NCBI GenBank assembly: GCA_001782475.1
Contig: MFOT01000007.1
Span: forward strand, 1 to 50,274
Reading direction: 5' to 3'
Length of the DNA: 50,274 bases
Source: Candidatus Levybacteria bacterium RIFCSPLOWO2_01_FULL_38_21
GTDB taxonomy: Bacteria; Patescibacteriota; Microgenomatia; Levybacterales; UBA12049
The translations under genes and the position numbers were made by a program. This document shows, in pieces, positions 26,291 through 30,223 of this stretch. Below the pieces are notes generated by a model. The model ran no database searches and was not told where the DNA came from. It saw nothing but the letters and a program-made list of their open reading frames with translations. Every line of letters starts with the position of its first letter. Position 1 is the stretch's first letter.

Positions 26291-26992
26291 ATGAAGAGTA
26301 AGGTGGTTTTGGCAGTTGGGGCACACCCCGATGATATAGAATTTGGAGCTTCTGGAACCATAGCAAAATGGGCGCAAGAGGGAGCAGAGTGTTATTATCT
26401 AATCTGTACAGACGGAAGCAGGGGATCCACAGATCCAAAGATGACTCATAAAAGACTTGTTCAGGTTAGAAGAAAGGAGCAGGAGGGAGCAGCAAAAATT
26501 TTGGGCCTTAAAAAGGTCTATTTCTTAGACTATACAGATACTCTTTTAACTGCAGACTACGCTCTAAGACGCGACATAGCAAAAATTATAAAAATCATAA
26601 AACCGGATATAGTGGTTACCATGGACCCAACTTTTTACTACTCCGAACAGTTTAATTTTATAAATCATACGGATCATAGAGCCGCAGCCCTGGCTACTAT
26701 GGATGCATGTTACCCCTTGGCTCGGGACAGATTAACATTTCCTGAACATGAAAAAGAGGGCTTAACGCCACATCGCGTCGAGGAGATTTGGTTTATTGGT
26801 TTTGATAAAACTAATTTGCTGATAGATATTACAGACACTTTTGTTAAAAAAATTGAAGCTATTACTATGCACAAGAGTCAATTTGAAAACATGGAGCATG
26901 TTATAAAAAGAGTAGAGGAGAGAGCAAGATATTTCGGAATTACAAAGGGTTGTAAATACGCAGAAAACTTCGTTCGGGTTGAGCTTTTTTAA
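26291..26992 (+). CDS. PIG-L/LmbE family deacetylase
   Basis: AHPDD, TDGSRG, RRKEQ..A, HTDH, HKSQ. Confidence 0.9.
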   Translation: MKSKVVLAVGAHPDDIEFGASGTIAKWAQEGAECYYLICTDGSRGSTDPKMTHKRLVQVRRKEQEGAAKILGLKKVYFLDYTDTLLTADYALRRDIAKIIKIIKPDIVVTMDPTFYYSEQFNFINHTDHRAAALATMDACYPLARDRLTFPEHEKEGLTPHRVEEIWFIGFDKTNLLIDITDTFVKKIEAITMHKSQFENMEHVIKRVEERARYFGITKGCKYAENFVRVELF

Positions 26993-27849
26993 AGATCTGA
27001 AAGAGTTGATGTTTCTTTGCCTCTTTCCCCAACATAATTAAGATATCTTTCGGTTGTAGAAAGTCTTTTATGTCCTAAAATTTTAGAAAGTAAAACCAAA
27101 GAAGCACCCTGTTTTAAGTGATGGGCAACAAATGTGTGTCTTAAATCATTTACCCTTGCATCTTTTACTTCTGCCAATCGGAAATACCTTTCCATAGAAG
27201 TTCTGATATTTCTTACCAAAAATGGTCTCCCAGATTTTGTGATAAAAAGATGACTGTCCTTTGTCTTTGGTCTTATTTCCAGATATTTTTGGAGCGCCTC
27301 CTGCGCCCTTTTATTAAGCGGAATTTCTCTTTCTTCGTGTTTTTCGTATGCTGCTATGTGCAAAGAATCCTTTTTACTATCGGAAACCCTGAGGTTCGCC
27401 AGTTCTCCAATTCTTATCCCTGTTTGAAGTAAAAGTTCAATGATTGCAAACATTCTGGGGTCGTTTCTTGCTGCGTCTCGCAAGGCTCTATATTCGGTTG
27501 GCGTGAGTATTCTGGGTGGTGCAAGCTGATATCTTGGGTGGGCGACTAAAAGAGAAGGGTCATCGGTAACATATTCGTTGATTTTAAGAAATCTATAAAA
27601 AGTTCGAGTAGAATTAATCTTTCGTGAAATTGATTTTGGGGTGTAACCGTCTTTCTGCATTTTTGCCAAAAATGCCTCTATGTCCTCTTTGGTTACTTCG
27701 TGAATTTGATTTTTCGCAACCTCTTCCAAAAACGAAATAAGTTGCTCTATATCTTTGCCATATGCTACAATTGTAGAGTTCGAATGCTTTTTGTTTTTAA
27801 GAAAATTTTTAAACTCTTGGTGGGCATCCCGGAGCTTTATGGTTTTCAT
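26989..27849 (-). CDS. XerC/XerD-like tyrosine recombinase
   Basis: SAM-like N-domain; TGIRIGEL, NDLRHTF (N in place of first H), LGH..LSTTERY. Confidence 0.88.
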   Translation of the reverse strand: MKTIKLRDAHQEFKNFLKNKKHSNSTIVAYGKDIEQLISFLEEVAKNQIHEVTKEDIEAFLAKMQKDGYTPKSISRKINSTRTFYRFLKINEYVTDDPSLLVAHPRYQLAPPRILTPTEYRALRDAARNDPRMFAIIELLLQTGIRIGELANLRVSDSKKDSLHIAAYEKHEEREIPLNKRAQEALQKYLEIRPKTKDSHLFITKSGRPFLVRNIRTSMERYFRLAEVKDARVNDLRHTFVAHHLKQGASLVLLSKILGHKRLSTTERYLNYVGERGKETSTLSDL

Positions 27850-27895
27850 ACTTCGATTTCACTCAGTATGATCCTGAGCAGAGTCGAAGGATCAT
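27847..27895. repeat. Pair of family A elements ending in the recombinase ATG
   Basis: Minus strand atgatccttcgactctgctcaggat-catact-gagtgaaatcga-agtATG. Confidence 0.8.
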
Positions 27896-27963
27896 ACAAA
27901 AGTGATGTCCTATAATATCAATAAAATTAACTTTAGTCAAGATGGGAATATTGAATACTTAGT

Positions 27964-28305
27964 ATGAAAAAAATCTTATTTATTGTTGCTATTGTAGCTT
28001 CAATTTTTATTATTAATAGCCTTGTTCGGTCTATCTACGATTTATGGAAAAAGCAAGATTTAATAACTCAAGCCCAAAAAGAACTAGAGAGAGAAAAACA
28101 GGAAAATTATGACCTAAAGTCTAAATTATCCAAGGCTCAAAATAATCAATTCGTAGAAGAGGAGGCTAGAAATAAATTATTGCTTGTAAAACCGGGCGAG
28201 GAATCGGTGATTATTCCTCAAGATTTACTTTCATCCCAAAGTTCGCAAAGAAAAAATATTGATACGCACCCAAACTTTAGAAAATGGTGGGATTTATTCT
28301 TCTGA
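27964..28305 (+). CDS. Septum formation initiator (FtsB/DivIC-like)
   Basis: N-terminal TM, coiled coil, FVEEEARNKLLLVKPGE; ends PNFRKWWDLFF. Confidence 0.82.
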   Translation: MKKILFIVAIVASIFIINSLVRSIYDLWKKQDLITQAQKELEREKQENYDLKSKLSKAQNNQFVEEEARNKLLLVKPGEESVIIPQDLLSSQSSQRKNIDTHPNFRKWWDLFF

Positions 28306-28347
28306 TTTAATGGTTAACTCAAAATGATTTATAATAAACGTAGATCA

Positions 28348-28508
28348 ATGAGACTTCCATATAGCGGAAACGCAGTTATTCCAAGAGAAAAGTTAACAAA
28401 ATATTTATTTTCAGAAACACATGCGACAGGAAAATTTAAAGCAAGGTTTTTCAGAAATCTCGGTTTTGACGAACCCAATGTCGATTTATTACCATATATC
28501 CTGTATAA
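28348..28508 (+). pseudogene. DUF6883-like putative toxin, internally deleted and frameshifted
   Basis: N-terminus MRLPYSGNAVIPREKLTKYL...H..GKFKARFF..LGF joined out of frame to C-terminal RFITIYPV*. Confidence 0.6.
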
Positions 28509-28531
28509 TAAGAAAGTTAGGAGATAATATT

Positions 28532-28762
28532 ATGTTTGAAGAATTAGACACTGTAGTTCTTGCCCACGATATTGAAAAAGATGGTCTTAGAAGAGGCGAT
28601 GTGGGGACTATAGTTCATATTTACAAAAATGGAAAAATATTAGAAGTTGAGTTTGTGAATGCAGAGGGGAAAACAGTAGCTTTACTTACTCTTGATTCAT
28701 CCGAAGTCCGTGGCATAAGGAAAAATGATATGCTGCATGTTAGAGGGTTTGCAACTGTTTAA
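28532..28762 (+). CDS. DUF4926 domain protein (putative antitoxin)
   Basis: MFEELDTVVL..D....GL.RGDVGTIVH.Y....LEVEF....G.TVA. Confidence 0.85.
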   Translation: MFEELDTVVLAHDIEKDGLRRGDVGTIVHIYKNGKILEVEFVNAEGKTVALLTLDSSEVRGIRKNDMLHVRGFATV

Positions 28763-28778
28763 TCTTCTTAAAGGATCT

Positions 28779-28823
28779 AATACTCGATCAAATTGACAGA
28801 AATGGTGGGATTTATTCTTCTAG
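28779..28823 (+). pseudogene. ftsB-like 3'-end remnant, copy 2
   Basis: NTRSN*QKWWDLFF*; 28800-28821 identical to 28282-28303. Confidence 0.9.
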
Positions 28824-28882
28824 CCTGCAATGAGCCTTCCAAAACCACAAGTATTTGTCCCTGAAATTGATATAATATTTCC

Positions 28883-29218
28883 ATGAGCTGGGACATTATT
28901 ACTTTTGAAACACAACGAGGAGAAAAACCCGTAGACGAGTTTATTAAAAGACAACAGCCTCAAGCCAGGTCAAAAATAGTCCACAACATCAGACTTCTGC
29001 GACAATACGGAAATATGCTCGGTATGCCTCATTCAAGAATGTTAGTTGGAGGATTATACGAATTGCGAATTAGAGGCAAGGAAGAATTACGAATCTTTTA
29101 TTGTTTCAAAAAGAGAACTATTTATTTACTCCATGTATTTAAGAAACAAACACAGAAGACACGAGTAAAAGAACTAAATCTGGCAATAAATAGAATGAAG
29201 GAATTGACAACAGCATAA
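28883..29218 (+). CDS. RelE/HigB-like toxin (Gp49-like)
   Basis: PVDEFI, LGMPHSR, LYELRIRG..ELRIFY, LLHVFKKQTQKT. Confidence 0.88.
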   Translation: MSWDIITFETQRGEKPVDEFIKRQQPQARSKIVHNIRLLRQYGNMLGMPHSRMLVGGLYELRIRGKEELRIFYCFKKRTIYLLHVFKKQTQKTRVKELNLAINRMKELTTA

Positions 29219-29242
29219 CGTTTATGTTATAAAATAGTTACT

Positions 29243-29515
29243 ATGAGTAAGTGGGAAGATTTAGAAAAAGAGTTGTTATCGGACCCTGAAACAAGAAAGG
29301 AGTTTAATAAGCTTGCACCTCGCTATGCGGTGATTTCAGAATTTATTAAAGCTCGTCTAAAAAAGGGGATGACTCAGAAAGACGTCGCTGATAAAATTGG
29401 CACCAAGCAATCTGCTGTTGCCAGACTTGAGGCAGGTAACAGCAACCCAACAATTGGCTTCTTGGAGAAAATTGCCTCTGTGCTTGGAACAAGGCTAACG
29501 ATTCATCTGCGGTAA
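29243..29515 (+). CDS. HigA-like XRE helix-turn-helix antitoxin
   Basis: RLKKGMTQKDVA.KIGTKQSAVARLEAG..NPT. Confidence 0.9.
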   Translation: MSKWEDLEKELLSDPETRKEFNKLAPRYAVISEFIKARLKKGMTQKDVADKIGTKQSAVARLEAGNSNPTIGFLEKIASVLGTRLTIHLR

Positions 29516-29516
29516 A

Positions 29517-29552
29517 AGTAACTGGAGAAAGTGGTGGGACATATCTTTCTAG
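29517..29552 (+). pseudogene. ftsB-like 3'-end remnant, copy 3
   Basis: SNWRKWWDISF*, codon-for-codon with PNFRKWWDLFF*. Confidence 0.8.
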
Positions 29553-29562
29553 AAGAATGAAA

Positions 29563-29823
29563 TTACATGTGATTTGTCTTTATTTCTCTTATTATTTTTC
29601 TTAATCCCATCCAACTCATCGCCAATGAGGATCTTAAATCACTTACGGGATGATGAGGATGATCAGCCGTTGCTCGGACGCCATCGTTAATGTCTTCTAA
29701 TTCACCATAATATTTACTATTTTGAGCAACAGGACCTGCCATATCAGTCTGTTGCCCCCAGCTTCCAGTTTGTGCAATTTCCAAATATTTATTTAAATAA
29801 AATCTTCTTTTTTCAGGATTCAT
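29563..29823 (-). CDS. Hypothetical protein, 86 aa (start moved to ATG 29823)
   Basis: MNPEKRRFYLNKY...; upstream extension of track ORF runs through repeat and tRNA debris. Confidence 0.5.
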   Translation of the reverse strand: MNPEKRRFYLNKYLEIAQTGSWGQQTDMAGPVAQNSKYYGELEDINDGVRATADHPHHPVSDLRSSLAMSWMGLRKIIREIKTNHM

Positions 29824-29837
29824 GCTATGGTTGTATC

Positions 29838-29910
29838 GGTACCAGGGGTGGGGATCCCCGCCTGCAACCTCCTGAAGCGACAGCTGATGGTGGGCAGGGA
29901 ACCCACGACC
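29838..29910 (-). pseudogene. tRNA 3'-half remnant interrupted in the T-loop by a long family B-like palindrome
   Basis: Minus strand ggtc-gtggg-ttc[cctgccc...gcaggcggg]gatc-cccac-ccctggtacc. Confidence 0.5.
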
Positions 29911-29938
29911 GCAAAGACTCTCTCCTATCAAAGCCTTG

Positions 29939-30010
29939 TGCCAACGGCAGGATTCGAACCTGCGACCCGACGCTTATGAAACGTCTGCTCTGCCCCTGAG
30001 CTACGTTGGC
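29939..30010 (-). tRNA. tRNA with CAU anticodon (probably elongator Met)
   Basis: GCCAACG/CGTTGGC-A; gacgt-ttCATaa-gcgtc; gcagg-ttcgaat-cctgc. Confidence 0.9.
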
Positions 30011-30068
30011 TCAGCTTATATTTTAACAGTTGGACAGATTGAGGTCAAATTGGTATAATAAACCTACA

Positions 30069-30137
30069 CGCGGGGTAGTGTACAGTGCACATGAGGCTCA
30101 TAATCTCATAGGCTAGGCGCAACTCCTAGCCCCGCAA
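30069..30137 (+). tRNA. Initiator-like tRNA-Met (CAU), atypical
   Basis: CGCGGGG/CCCCGCA-A with C1:A72 mismatch; tgagg-ctCATaa-tctca; ctagg-cgcaact-cctag; TATAAT at 30054. Confidence 0.75.
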
Positions 30138-30223
30138 CCGATTCGACGCGCCTTTCGCTTCTCTCAAGGCTTGCTCACGGCAAGCTCTTGCGCGGCGAAT
30201 TGGTGCTGAACCTGCCGAAGCAC
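30138..30223. repeat. Two family A elements (long-loop forward, short reverse) upstream of GIY-YIG gene
   Basis: ccgattcgac[25 nt]gctcacggcaag; gtgctgaacctgccgaagcac. Confidence 0.7.

Follow-up and report, generated by a model that had tools for sequence, protein, structure and literature searches.

Toxin–antitoxin mini-cassettes arrayed behind repeated copies of the ftsB 3′ end in a Candidatus Levybacteria genome

Introduction

The 50,274-nucleotide (nt) stretch analyzed here (the window; contig MFOT01000007.1) is contig 7 of the 0.79-Mb, 98%-complete genome of Candidatus Levybacteria bacterium RIFCSPLOWO2_01_FULL_38_21 (genome G000; a 28-contig assembly). Directly behind ftsB, which encodes a septum formation initiator of the FtsB/DivIC type, the window carries two small toxin–antitoxin (TA)-type cassettes, each followed by a further copy of the ftsB 3′ end. 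Our preferred, though tentative, explanation is a tandem accretion resembling that of cis-mobilizable elements (CIMEs), which took place at the ftsB 3′ end inside an insertion hotspot between ftsB and tRNA-Met and was driven by a site-specific recombinase supplied in trans. We compared the locus with those of relatives, designated by genome (G) or locus (L) numbers (L034 is the locus of G001, L038 of G015, L144 of G059, L166 of G407, and L169 of G028); the genomes compared are related, and counts across them are not independent. Several junction comparisons were made by eye on printed sequence.

Three copies of the ftsB 3′ end bound two cassettes

The genes in this part of the window follow the order tRNA-Ile, PIG-L deacetylase, Xer-like recombinase (minus strand), ftsB/DivIC, a truncated DUF6883 open reading frame (ORF), and DUF4926, and then a HigB-type toxin, a helix-turn-helix (HTH) antitoxin, an 86-amino-acid (aa) ORF (minus strand), and two tRNA-Met genes. 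The features that carry the argument are the following:

27964..28305, plus strand: ftsB/DivIC-type septum formation initiator, the live target gene (PF04977, E 1e-12)
28273..28305, plus strand: copy 1, the live ftsB end (N F R K W W D L F F, stop TGA)
28306..28790, plus strand: cassette 1, truncated DUF6883 and intact DUF4926 (Pfam)
28324-28527, plus strand: truncated DUF6883 ORF with a probable start at 28348 (67 aa, model positions 2-56 of 110)
28532-28762, plus strand: intact DUF4926, a putative immunity protein (Pfam)
28791..28823, plus strand: copy 2 of the ftsB end (N stop Q K W W D L F F, stop TAG; nhmmer E 1.7e-6)
28824..29519, plus strand: cassette 2, HigB-type toxin (28883-29218) and HTH antitoxin (29243-29515), with TATAAT at 28871
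29520..29552, plus strand: copy 3 of the ftsB end, decayed (N W R K W W D I S F, stop TAG; nhmmer E 1.2e-4)

The ftsB product ends in ...DTHPNFRKWWDLFF before the stop codon, and the C-terminal motif PNW.KWW.LFF with its stop is kept across the FtsB family. A repeat search placed the three copies in a single 31-nt family (28273-28303; 28791-28821, 81%; 29520-29550, 77%), and the Pro-Asn codons are the common starting point of all trailing copies of the ftsB end. Identity is complete between the 22-mers at 28282-28303 and 28800-28821 (none of 100 shuffles gave even two matches), and the identical block, which has diverged sequence on either side, looks like the footprint of a crossover. Elsewhere in the 0.79-Mb genome, no copy of the ftsB end was found besides these three. 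The original prediction, made from the sequence of the window alone, had described three ftsB-end copies bounding two TA cassettes, with their peptides and the 22-nt identity, and all of this was borne out by the repeat search, the shuffles, and Pfam. It had also claimed that similarity to the live end falls with distance; this trend is weak in overall identity to copy 1 (25/31 bases for copy 2 and 24/31 for copy 3) and clearer in the longest exact run (22 nt vs. 8 nt). Copy 3 shares 87.9% of its bases with the live ftsB end in L092, a metagenome contig of a closely related bacterium. Directly after copy 3, part of the ftsB-end tail recurs in inverted orientation (29549-29561; 13 nt, 92%) and abuts the stop of the minus-strand ORF; save for this tail, no inverted repeats were found at the three copies.

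An empty site in a close relative

On either flank of the array, L092 and the window are collinear (82-90% nt identity). Its ftsB stop lies 35 nt from tRNA-Met, without cassettes, whereas the corresponding distance in the window is 1632 nt. Two further features delimit the right side of the array:

29553..29838, minus strand: segment 3, with an 86-aa ORF (29563-29823) of no family match; missing from L092
29839..29865, plus strand: spacer found directly behind the ftsB stop in L092; right edge of the inserted DNA

Because the site is empty in L092 and the L092 post-ftsB spacer resurfaces at 29839, from where the window flank aligns with it, roughly 28306-29838 (about 1.5 kb) is read as inserted DNA. 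It encodes only TA-type domains or ORFs of no family and is without integration or transfer genes. Segment 3, whose ORF matched nothing in Pfam, PHROGs, or PADLOC, is possibly an older cassette, and a fourth, very weak remnant of the ftsB end may be present at about 29824-29838.

Two other elements of the original prediction are upheld by this layout. It had proposed that a coding sequence serves as the recombination target, and each unit is indeed bounded by a copy of the ftsB end starting at the Pro-Asn codons. It had also proposed sequential insertion with the newest unit closest to the gene; the DUF cassette separates ftsB from the HigBA unit, and HigBA is found directly behind ftsB in G025 and G609.

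Content of the cassettes

A preprint (bioRxiv 10.64898/2026.08.28.747851) places DUF6883 among the BECR-Tox3 RNase toxins and gives DUF4926 as its likely partner for immunity. Compared with the full-length copy in G015, the DUF6883 gene of the window has a 163-nt internal deletion at a 10-nt microhomology and has also lost upstream sequence. Cassette 1 does not hold a full-length DUF6883 toxin with a downstream DUF4926, the toxin being cut to 67 aa; because the toxin is truncated and DUF4926 is intact, cassette 1 is, as judged from its genes, a disarmed module. Cassette 2 is a predicted type II HigB/HigA TA pair, comprising a Gp49/HigB-type toxin (PF05973, 9e-23) and an HTH_3 antitoxin (PF01381, 4e-16). 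The dN/dS ratio (nonsynonymous to synonymous substitution rates) of HigB/HigA against G025, G059, and G609 is 0.04-0.18, indicating purifying selection.

The cassettes appear to have their own promoters, although the original claim of a -10 box for each of them stands only in part. Bare TATAAT hexamers occur at 28330, 28504, and 28871, and those ahead of DUF6883 and HigB are kept 5-12 nt before the start codon in G015, G025, and G059 (by eye), but a two-hexamer scan called no promoter upstream of the cassette genes. Between HigB and HigA, at 29219-29242, there is a near-palindrome followed by a TATAAA box, almost identical in G025 (by eye), which may be an operator or an internal promoter.

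Recurrence in relatives and horizontal transfer

The order was surveyed by a pattern search for ftsB-end copies in 245 genomes, and 49 ftsB loci (the window, 40 relatives, and eight metagenome contigs) were examined. Multiple ftsB-end copies on the same contig were found in three of the 245 genomes (G000, G025, and G609). When the 49 loci were searched with an nhmmer profile built from 31 canonical ftsB ends, extra copies were detected in the window (two) and in G025 (one) only, and an ungapped scan with each genome's own ftsB end found no further arrays among these loci. A class-wide scan of 401 genomes, with a pattern that was too strict, returned multiple copies in G000 only. In two genomes of family f2 (G464 and G472), several ftsB-end-like matches lie on separate contigs, and one string is common to both.

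HigB homologues are present in 54/245 genomes, and 29 loci were examined. The closest ones (G059, 75% aa identity; G025, 73%) and that of G609 are all located directly behind ftsB, and in G025 and G609 a trailing ftsB-end copy is present behind HigBA. The segment of the window from copy 2 through HigBA to copy 3 shares 74.7% nt identity with the G025 segment from the ftsB end through HigBA to the trailing copy, and G025 and G609 are collinear over xer, ftsB, HigBA, and the trailing copy, with homology ending right after the latter. DUF4926 was found in 12 of the 244 other genomes, and the closest one (G015, 81% aa identity) lies just behind ftsB, next to a full-length DUF6883. The content of the locus varies across relatives, L092 being empty, G025, G609, and G059 carrying HigBA, and G015 carrying DUF4926.

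G059 belongs to another family, with 34% (FtsB) and 66% (Xer) aa identity to the window, and its HigA is 83% identical to that of the window, the cassette as a whole sharing 77.5% identity over 653 nt. In the same genome pairs, the proportion of synonymous differences (pS) between the window and relatives is 0.59-0.61 for HigB and 0.50 for DUF4926, compared to 0.71-0.87 for the host xer and 0.80-0.94 for the host ftsB. The lower synonymous divergence of the cassette genes than of the host genes therefore argues for horizontal transfer; given that the genes are short, this evidence for a horizontal origin of the cassettes is suggestive and clearest for G059.

The same anatomy at other genes

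To identify flanking repeats, 200-260 nt on each side of a TA pair were compared with shuffles (28 HigBA loci, one of the 29 having been dropped for a short flank). Significant flanking direct repeats were found at 4/12 DUF4926 loci and 6/28 HigBA loci. The repeated sequence in G407 and G028 is the rpsJ 3′ end (identity as S10 confirmed, PF00338), and a HigBA cassette of another lineage lies directly after rpsJ, in the opposite orientation, between two intact-looking rpsJ ends; in G028 it is placed inside the S10 operon, with rpsJ on one side and rplC on the other. A LamG-domain gene supplies the repeated end in G520. The displaced gene-end copies (rpsJ and the LamG-domain gene) still encode the peptide, and in G028 all nine differences between the rpsJ-end copies are synonymous. 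Each copy was therefore at one time a live gene end, in different lineages, and the incoming DNA accordingly carried such an end.

The interval between ftsB and tRNA-Met

The block comprising the xer-like recombinase, ftsB, and tRNA-Met (26989-30139 in the window) is conserved throughout the order. In 43 of the 49 ftsB loci, the nearest tRNA downstream is tRNA-Met(CAT), at a distance of 1 to 8424 nt (≤50 nt in 10/49), and in the DNA examined for the other six no downstream tRNA was found. Insertions of different kinds occupy this interval. In G001, which belongs to the same genus, an 8.8-kb phage-like insert lies behind ftsB (L034, 2074-10955), encoding a small terminase, DUF5659, and a 587-aa large serine recombinase. 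The cargo elsewhere consists of a DUF218 gene (L091) and ORFs without a family match (L093, G025, G609, and G059), for which PHROGs and PADLOC gave no matches either. Judged by these comparisons, the ftsB–tRNA-Met interval is an insertion hotspot in this order. Its right side in the window holds:

29889..29913, minus strand: relic of the 3′ part of a tRNA-Met (G025 type), 22/25 nt, scoring above all 300 shuffles
29938..30010, minus strand: tRNA-Met(CAT), the conserved right border of the hotspot

The relic and the live tRNA-Met are 25 nt apart. Its presence suggests that the tRNA previously underwent a replacement or an integration event, and the hotspot would therefore also have been used from the tRNA side.

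Other observations were made in and around this interval. In G001, the serine-recombinase ORF covers a 40-nt tRNA-Met half with its 3′ end. The second tRNA-Met of the window (30069-30139, plus strand) is unbroken, whereas in L091 (2516-2781) and L092 (8282-8543) it is split into halves about 185-195 nt apart, which match the window tRNA at 97-100% and 95%; this split could represent an intron or an insertion. Contig 34 of G002, of the same genus, stops 4 nt past the ftsB stop, and the hotspot lies beyond the contig end. A conserved element of about 50-60 nt, here called R, occurs upstream of or between cassettes in two families (window 28830-28868; G015, L038, 2150-2213 and 2834-2895; G059, L144, about 2300-2365). 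In G015, it flanks the DUF cassette as a direct repeat and opens with a tRNA-Met 3′ fragment; the element has no match in Rfam. R of G015 was considered as a decayed ftsB end and rejected, as it starts with the tRNA-Met 3′ fragment and its 11-nt resemblance to the ftsB end is probably due to chance. An Rfam scan of the window region, L036, L038, and L144 detected only tRNAs.

Proposed mechanism

Under CIME-like accretion, TA cassettes measuring about 0.5 kb and 0.7 kb, perhaps preceded by an older one of 0.3 kb, would have entered serially by recombination in the last ~33 nt of ftsB. With the joint inside the last ~11 codons of the gene, each event would keep an intact ftsB end on the gene, thus preserving the complete ftsB, and would strand a second, now untranslated copy of that end beyond the cassette. 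Repeated events would produce the series gene end, cassette, old end, cassette, older end, and the position of the DUF cassette between ftsB and HigBA implies that an insertion at the live end would push older units outward. Addictive TA genes would be the cargo that persists, and the cassettes, devoid of a recombinase, would behave as cis-mobilizable elements. The enzyme is taken to be a site-specific recombinase acting in trans, for which the adjacent Xer-like gene (26989-27849) is no more than a candidate, and we infer that the cassettes would pass through a circular intermediate. A cassette that brings a new end with it fits both copy 3 (88% identical to the L092 live end) and copy 2 (which resembles the live ends of G025 and G609), and the opposite, in which the cassette would have arrived with the displaced copy, also fits. 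Transfer across families and a constant junction favor a trans-acting site-specific recombinase.

Several observations weigh against this explanation. No recombinase is tied to the insertion events, and neither a parental integrative and conjugative element (ICE) or integrative and mobilizable element (IME) nor an integrase of matching specificity was found; a scan of viral contigs for an attP-like mimic of the ftsB end gave two hits, neither near ftsB or xer, which were judged to be due to chance. Arrays are rare (3/245 genomes of the order; 2/49 ftsB loci by the profile), most cassette loci have no flanking repeat (8/12 for DUF4926 and 22/28 for HigBA), the G059 HigBA lies behind ftsB without a detectable trailing copy, and the G015 DUF cassette is bounded by a different repeat of 54-62 nt instead of the ftsB end. 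Moreover, the repeats range from 18 to 111 nt, their sequence differs by locus, and the same cassette family occurs at different targets; such variability of targets and lengths is unusual for recombinase-less elements that rely on a single integrase. No motif common to the target repeats (ftsB, rpsJ, the LamG-domain gene, and others; by eye) and no inverted-repeat core in the ftsB end were recognized. Finally, HigA pS is near saturation (0.74-0.75), and the age argument rests mainly on HigB and DUF4926.

Alternative explanations

The strongest rival dispenses with a dedicated recombinase and invokes natural transformation and RecA, with the xer-ftsB block or the ftsB-end copies as homology arms; we consider it a genuine possibility, albeit an unlikely one. 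In its sequence of steps, to which we attach the same doubt, the first duplication would arise by homology-facilitated illegitimate recombination, and later units would enter by Campbell-type insertion of looped-out circles or by double crossovers between short repeats. In length, the perfect 22-nt block is close to a minimal homology segment. The genome encodes both ComEC and RecA, and this route would account for the variable repeat lengths and targets, the missing common core, the lack of mobility genes, and the occurrence of cassettes beside highly conserved genes (xer-ftsB; tuf-rpsJ), while repeat copies that differ at synonymous sites fit DNA derived from a diverged lineage. Natural competence has been shown in cultivated Saccharibacteria (PMC10187176 / PMC10633639), which lends this route further support. 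However, the G059 transfer crosses families, between which FtsB and Xer differ as described above and the ftsB ends share only short perfect runs, making them a poor RecA substrate. In addition, independent illegitimate joins are unlikely to fall at the same codon, although boundaries inherited through circles could explain this.

Alternatively, each cassette could be all that survives of a larger island or prophage that encoded an integrase and was directed at either ftsB or the junction of ftsB with tRNA-Met, retained because TA genes are addictive, a scenario that we regard as improbable. Decay of this kind is the classical route to CIMEs (PMC5704250). The phage-like element of G001, with its large serine recombinase, occupies the same interval, cassette 1 has suffered two deletions, and the tRNA-Met 3′ relic indicates that the hotspot was used from the tRNA side too. 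On the other hand, the element of G001 is without an ftsB-end copy, a minimal HigBA unit of about 0.73 kb tightly bounded by copies is found in G000, G025, and G609, and four different loci have repeats on either side of the minimal DUF pair; repeated decay to exactly a TA pair with both ends kept is unlikely. Searches with Pfam, PHROGs, and PADLOC revealed no integrase fragment in the array.

A third possibility, to which we assign a low probability, is that the array is an analogue of an integron, in which the adjacent Xer-like recombinase uses the ftsB end as an attI-like site and captures cassettes. The gene concerned is:

26989..27849, minus strand: Xer-like tyrosine recombinase, 286 aa, divergent from ftsB (PF00589, PF02899)

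The topology is integron-like, with a divergent recombinase gene, a site, and same-strand cassettes of which the newest is gene-proximal, and the linkage of the recombinase with ftsB is invariant in the order: the two genes adjoin in 39/40 relatives (62-88% aa identity), and the fortieth locus is without upstream DNA. Yet the pair has no extra ftsB-end copy in 47/49 loci. The integron-integrase model TIGR02249 scored the protein at 65 bits (cut-off 265; model positions 3-180 of 315), and Xer models scored it higher (XerC, 171 bits with a cut-off of 335; archaeal XerA, 151 bits with a cut-off of 220). By these scores, it is a conserved Xer-like gene of housekeeping type and not IntI; elsewhere in the genome, there is a XerD-like gene with a better score (251 bits), and a third gene scores lower. 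The second Xer-like gene is on contig 24, and contig 16 encodes a serine recombinase. Single-stranded folds of the three repeat regions on both strands gave z values of -0.67 to +1.27 relative to shuffles, without attC-like hairpins. Codon usage in the last 12 codons of ftsB (31 loci) is skewed, the final Phe being TTC in 22/29 (local background 26%) and Leu being CTA in 12/30 (8%), counts whose significance is overstated by the relatedness of the genomes. This skew may reflect a nucleotide-level constraint, which would favor an integron analogue, or shared ancestry, whereas relatives differ freely from one another at the synonymous positions of this gene end. Repeat-flanked cassettes also occur at rpsJ and other genes without a recombinase within 1.5 kb. 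The integron part of the original prediction is therefore not supported, and classification as an integron was rejected, because there is neither an IntI nor an attC-like fold, the recombinase is conserved without cassettes, the cassettes appear to have promoters of their own, the same cassette families occur elsewhere with other flanking repeats, and arrays are rare.

A dif site or an integrative mobile element exploiting Xer (IMEX) was likewise considered and rejected, as the locus is close to dnaA and the window shows no GC-skew switch. dnaA lies 47-112 kb from ftsB in all four relatives with both genes on one contig (G026, G013, G047, and G058), and in the closed genome G026 the sampled GC skew changes sign at 1.20-1.28 Mb, with dnaA at 1.25 Mb and ftsB at 1.363 Mb, 0.11 Mb from this switch, which marks the origin. 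A broader proposal holds that the conserved 3′ ends of essential genes (ftsB, rpsJ, and others) are attachment sites for recombinase-less TA mini-cassettes, each bringing a replacement gene end, that are moved by a conserved host tyrosine recombinase (at ftsB, the adjacent Xer-like enzyme) in a double-strand, integron-like capture independent of IntI; we see it as a speculative generalization with little chance of being correct.

An artefact, i.e., misassembly in a 28-contig genome or fortuitous short AT-rich similarity, is effectively refuted, since none of 100 shuffles gave a 22-mer pair, the nhmmer E values are 1.7e-6 and 1.2e-4, the repeats are shorter than reads, and the same structure was assembled independently in G025 and G609.

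Comparison with known systems and significance

CIMEs are elements without integration or transfer genes, flanked by attL and attR sites derived from a target gene end, and a new element entering at the gene-end att site gives rise to tandem arrays (PMC5704250). The units described here resemble the CIMEs of streptococci (ICESt1/ICESt3 type) in that they are bounded by direct repeats that include the ftsB 3′ end, carry no integration or transfer genes, and face an empty site in relatives. In contrast to CIMEs, they are only 0.5-0.7 kb long, contain a TA pair only, and reside in small-genome bacteria of the candidate phyla radiation (CPR) type, and a parental ICE or IME and a matching integrase were not found. 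In Dehalococcoides, serial direct repeats of the ssrA 3′ end lie downstream of the live gene, and some of the islands, which are without an integration module, have been proposed to be cis-mobilized (PMC3146451). The serial gene-end repeats behind a live gene and the module-less units are common to both systems; however, the Dehalococcoides target is an RNA gene, the islands are of kilobase size, and many carry the serine recombinase DsiB, whereas in the window a protein-coding end is kept in frame and no integrase is linked to it.

The TA cassettes of sedentary chromosomal integrons are also small and recombinase-less, often have their own promoter, and are stacked by a tyrosine-recombinase gene through proximal insertion. 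They differ from the present array, which has no IntI and no attC-like fold, uses a coding gene end as the repeat, and shares its cassette families with other loci. IMEX at dif and the pdif modules of Acinetobacter plasmids are small modules, some with TA genes, that are moved by the host Xer proteins and can be stacked. The ftsB locus differs from them in lying 47-112 kb from dnaA and in not being a dimer-resolution site. In the abstracts and passages of the literature that were covered, no TA mini-cassettes bounded by copies of a protein-gene end are reported in CPR bacteria.

Should the TA units of 0.5-0.7 kb prove mobile in this form, they would rank with the smallest known integrative elements of the site-directed kind, and they would neatly illustrate how a cassette can enter an essential coding sequence and restore it in the same event. 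If they were driven by RecA, the process would be more ordinary and would still show that short conserved gene ends can act as portable homology arms. The locus offers a testable handle on the spread of TA genes in streamlined genomes with few conventional mobile elements, and, for a group in which genetic manipulation is difficult, the junction of the ftsB end with tRNA-Met provides a landing site that is conserved in nature. Set beside the systems above, the array is a new variant within the known accretion of elements at gene ends, one in which TA mini-cassettes are placed serially in a coding 3′ end, and it is not an integron.

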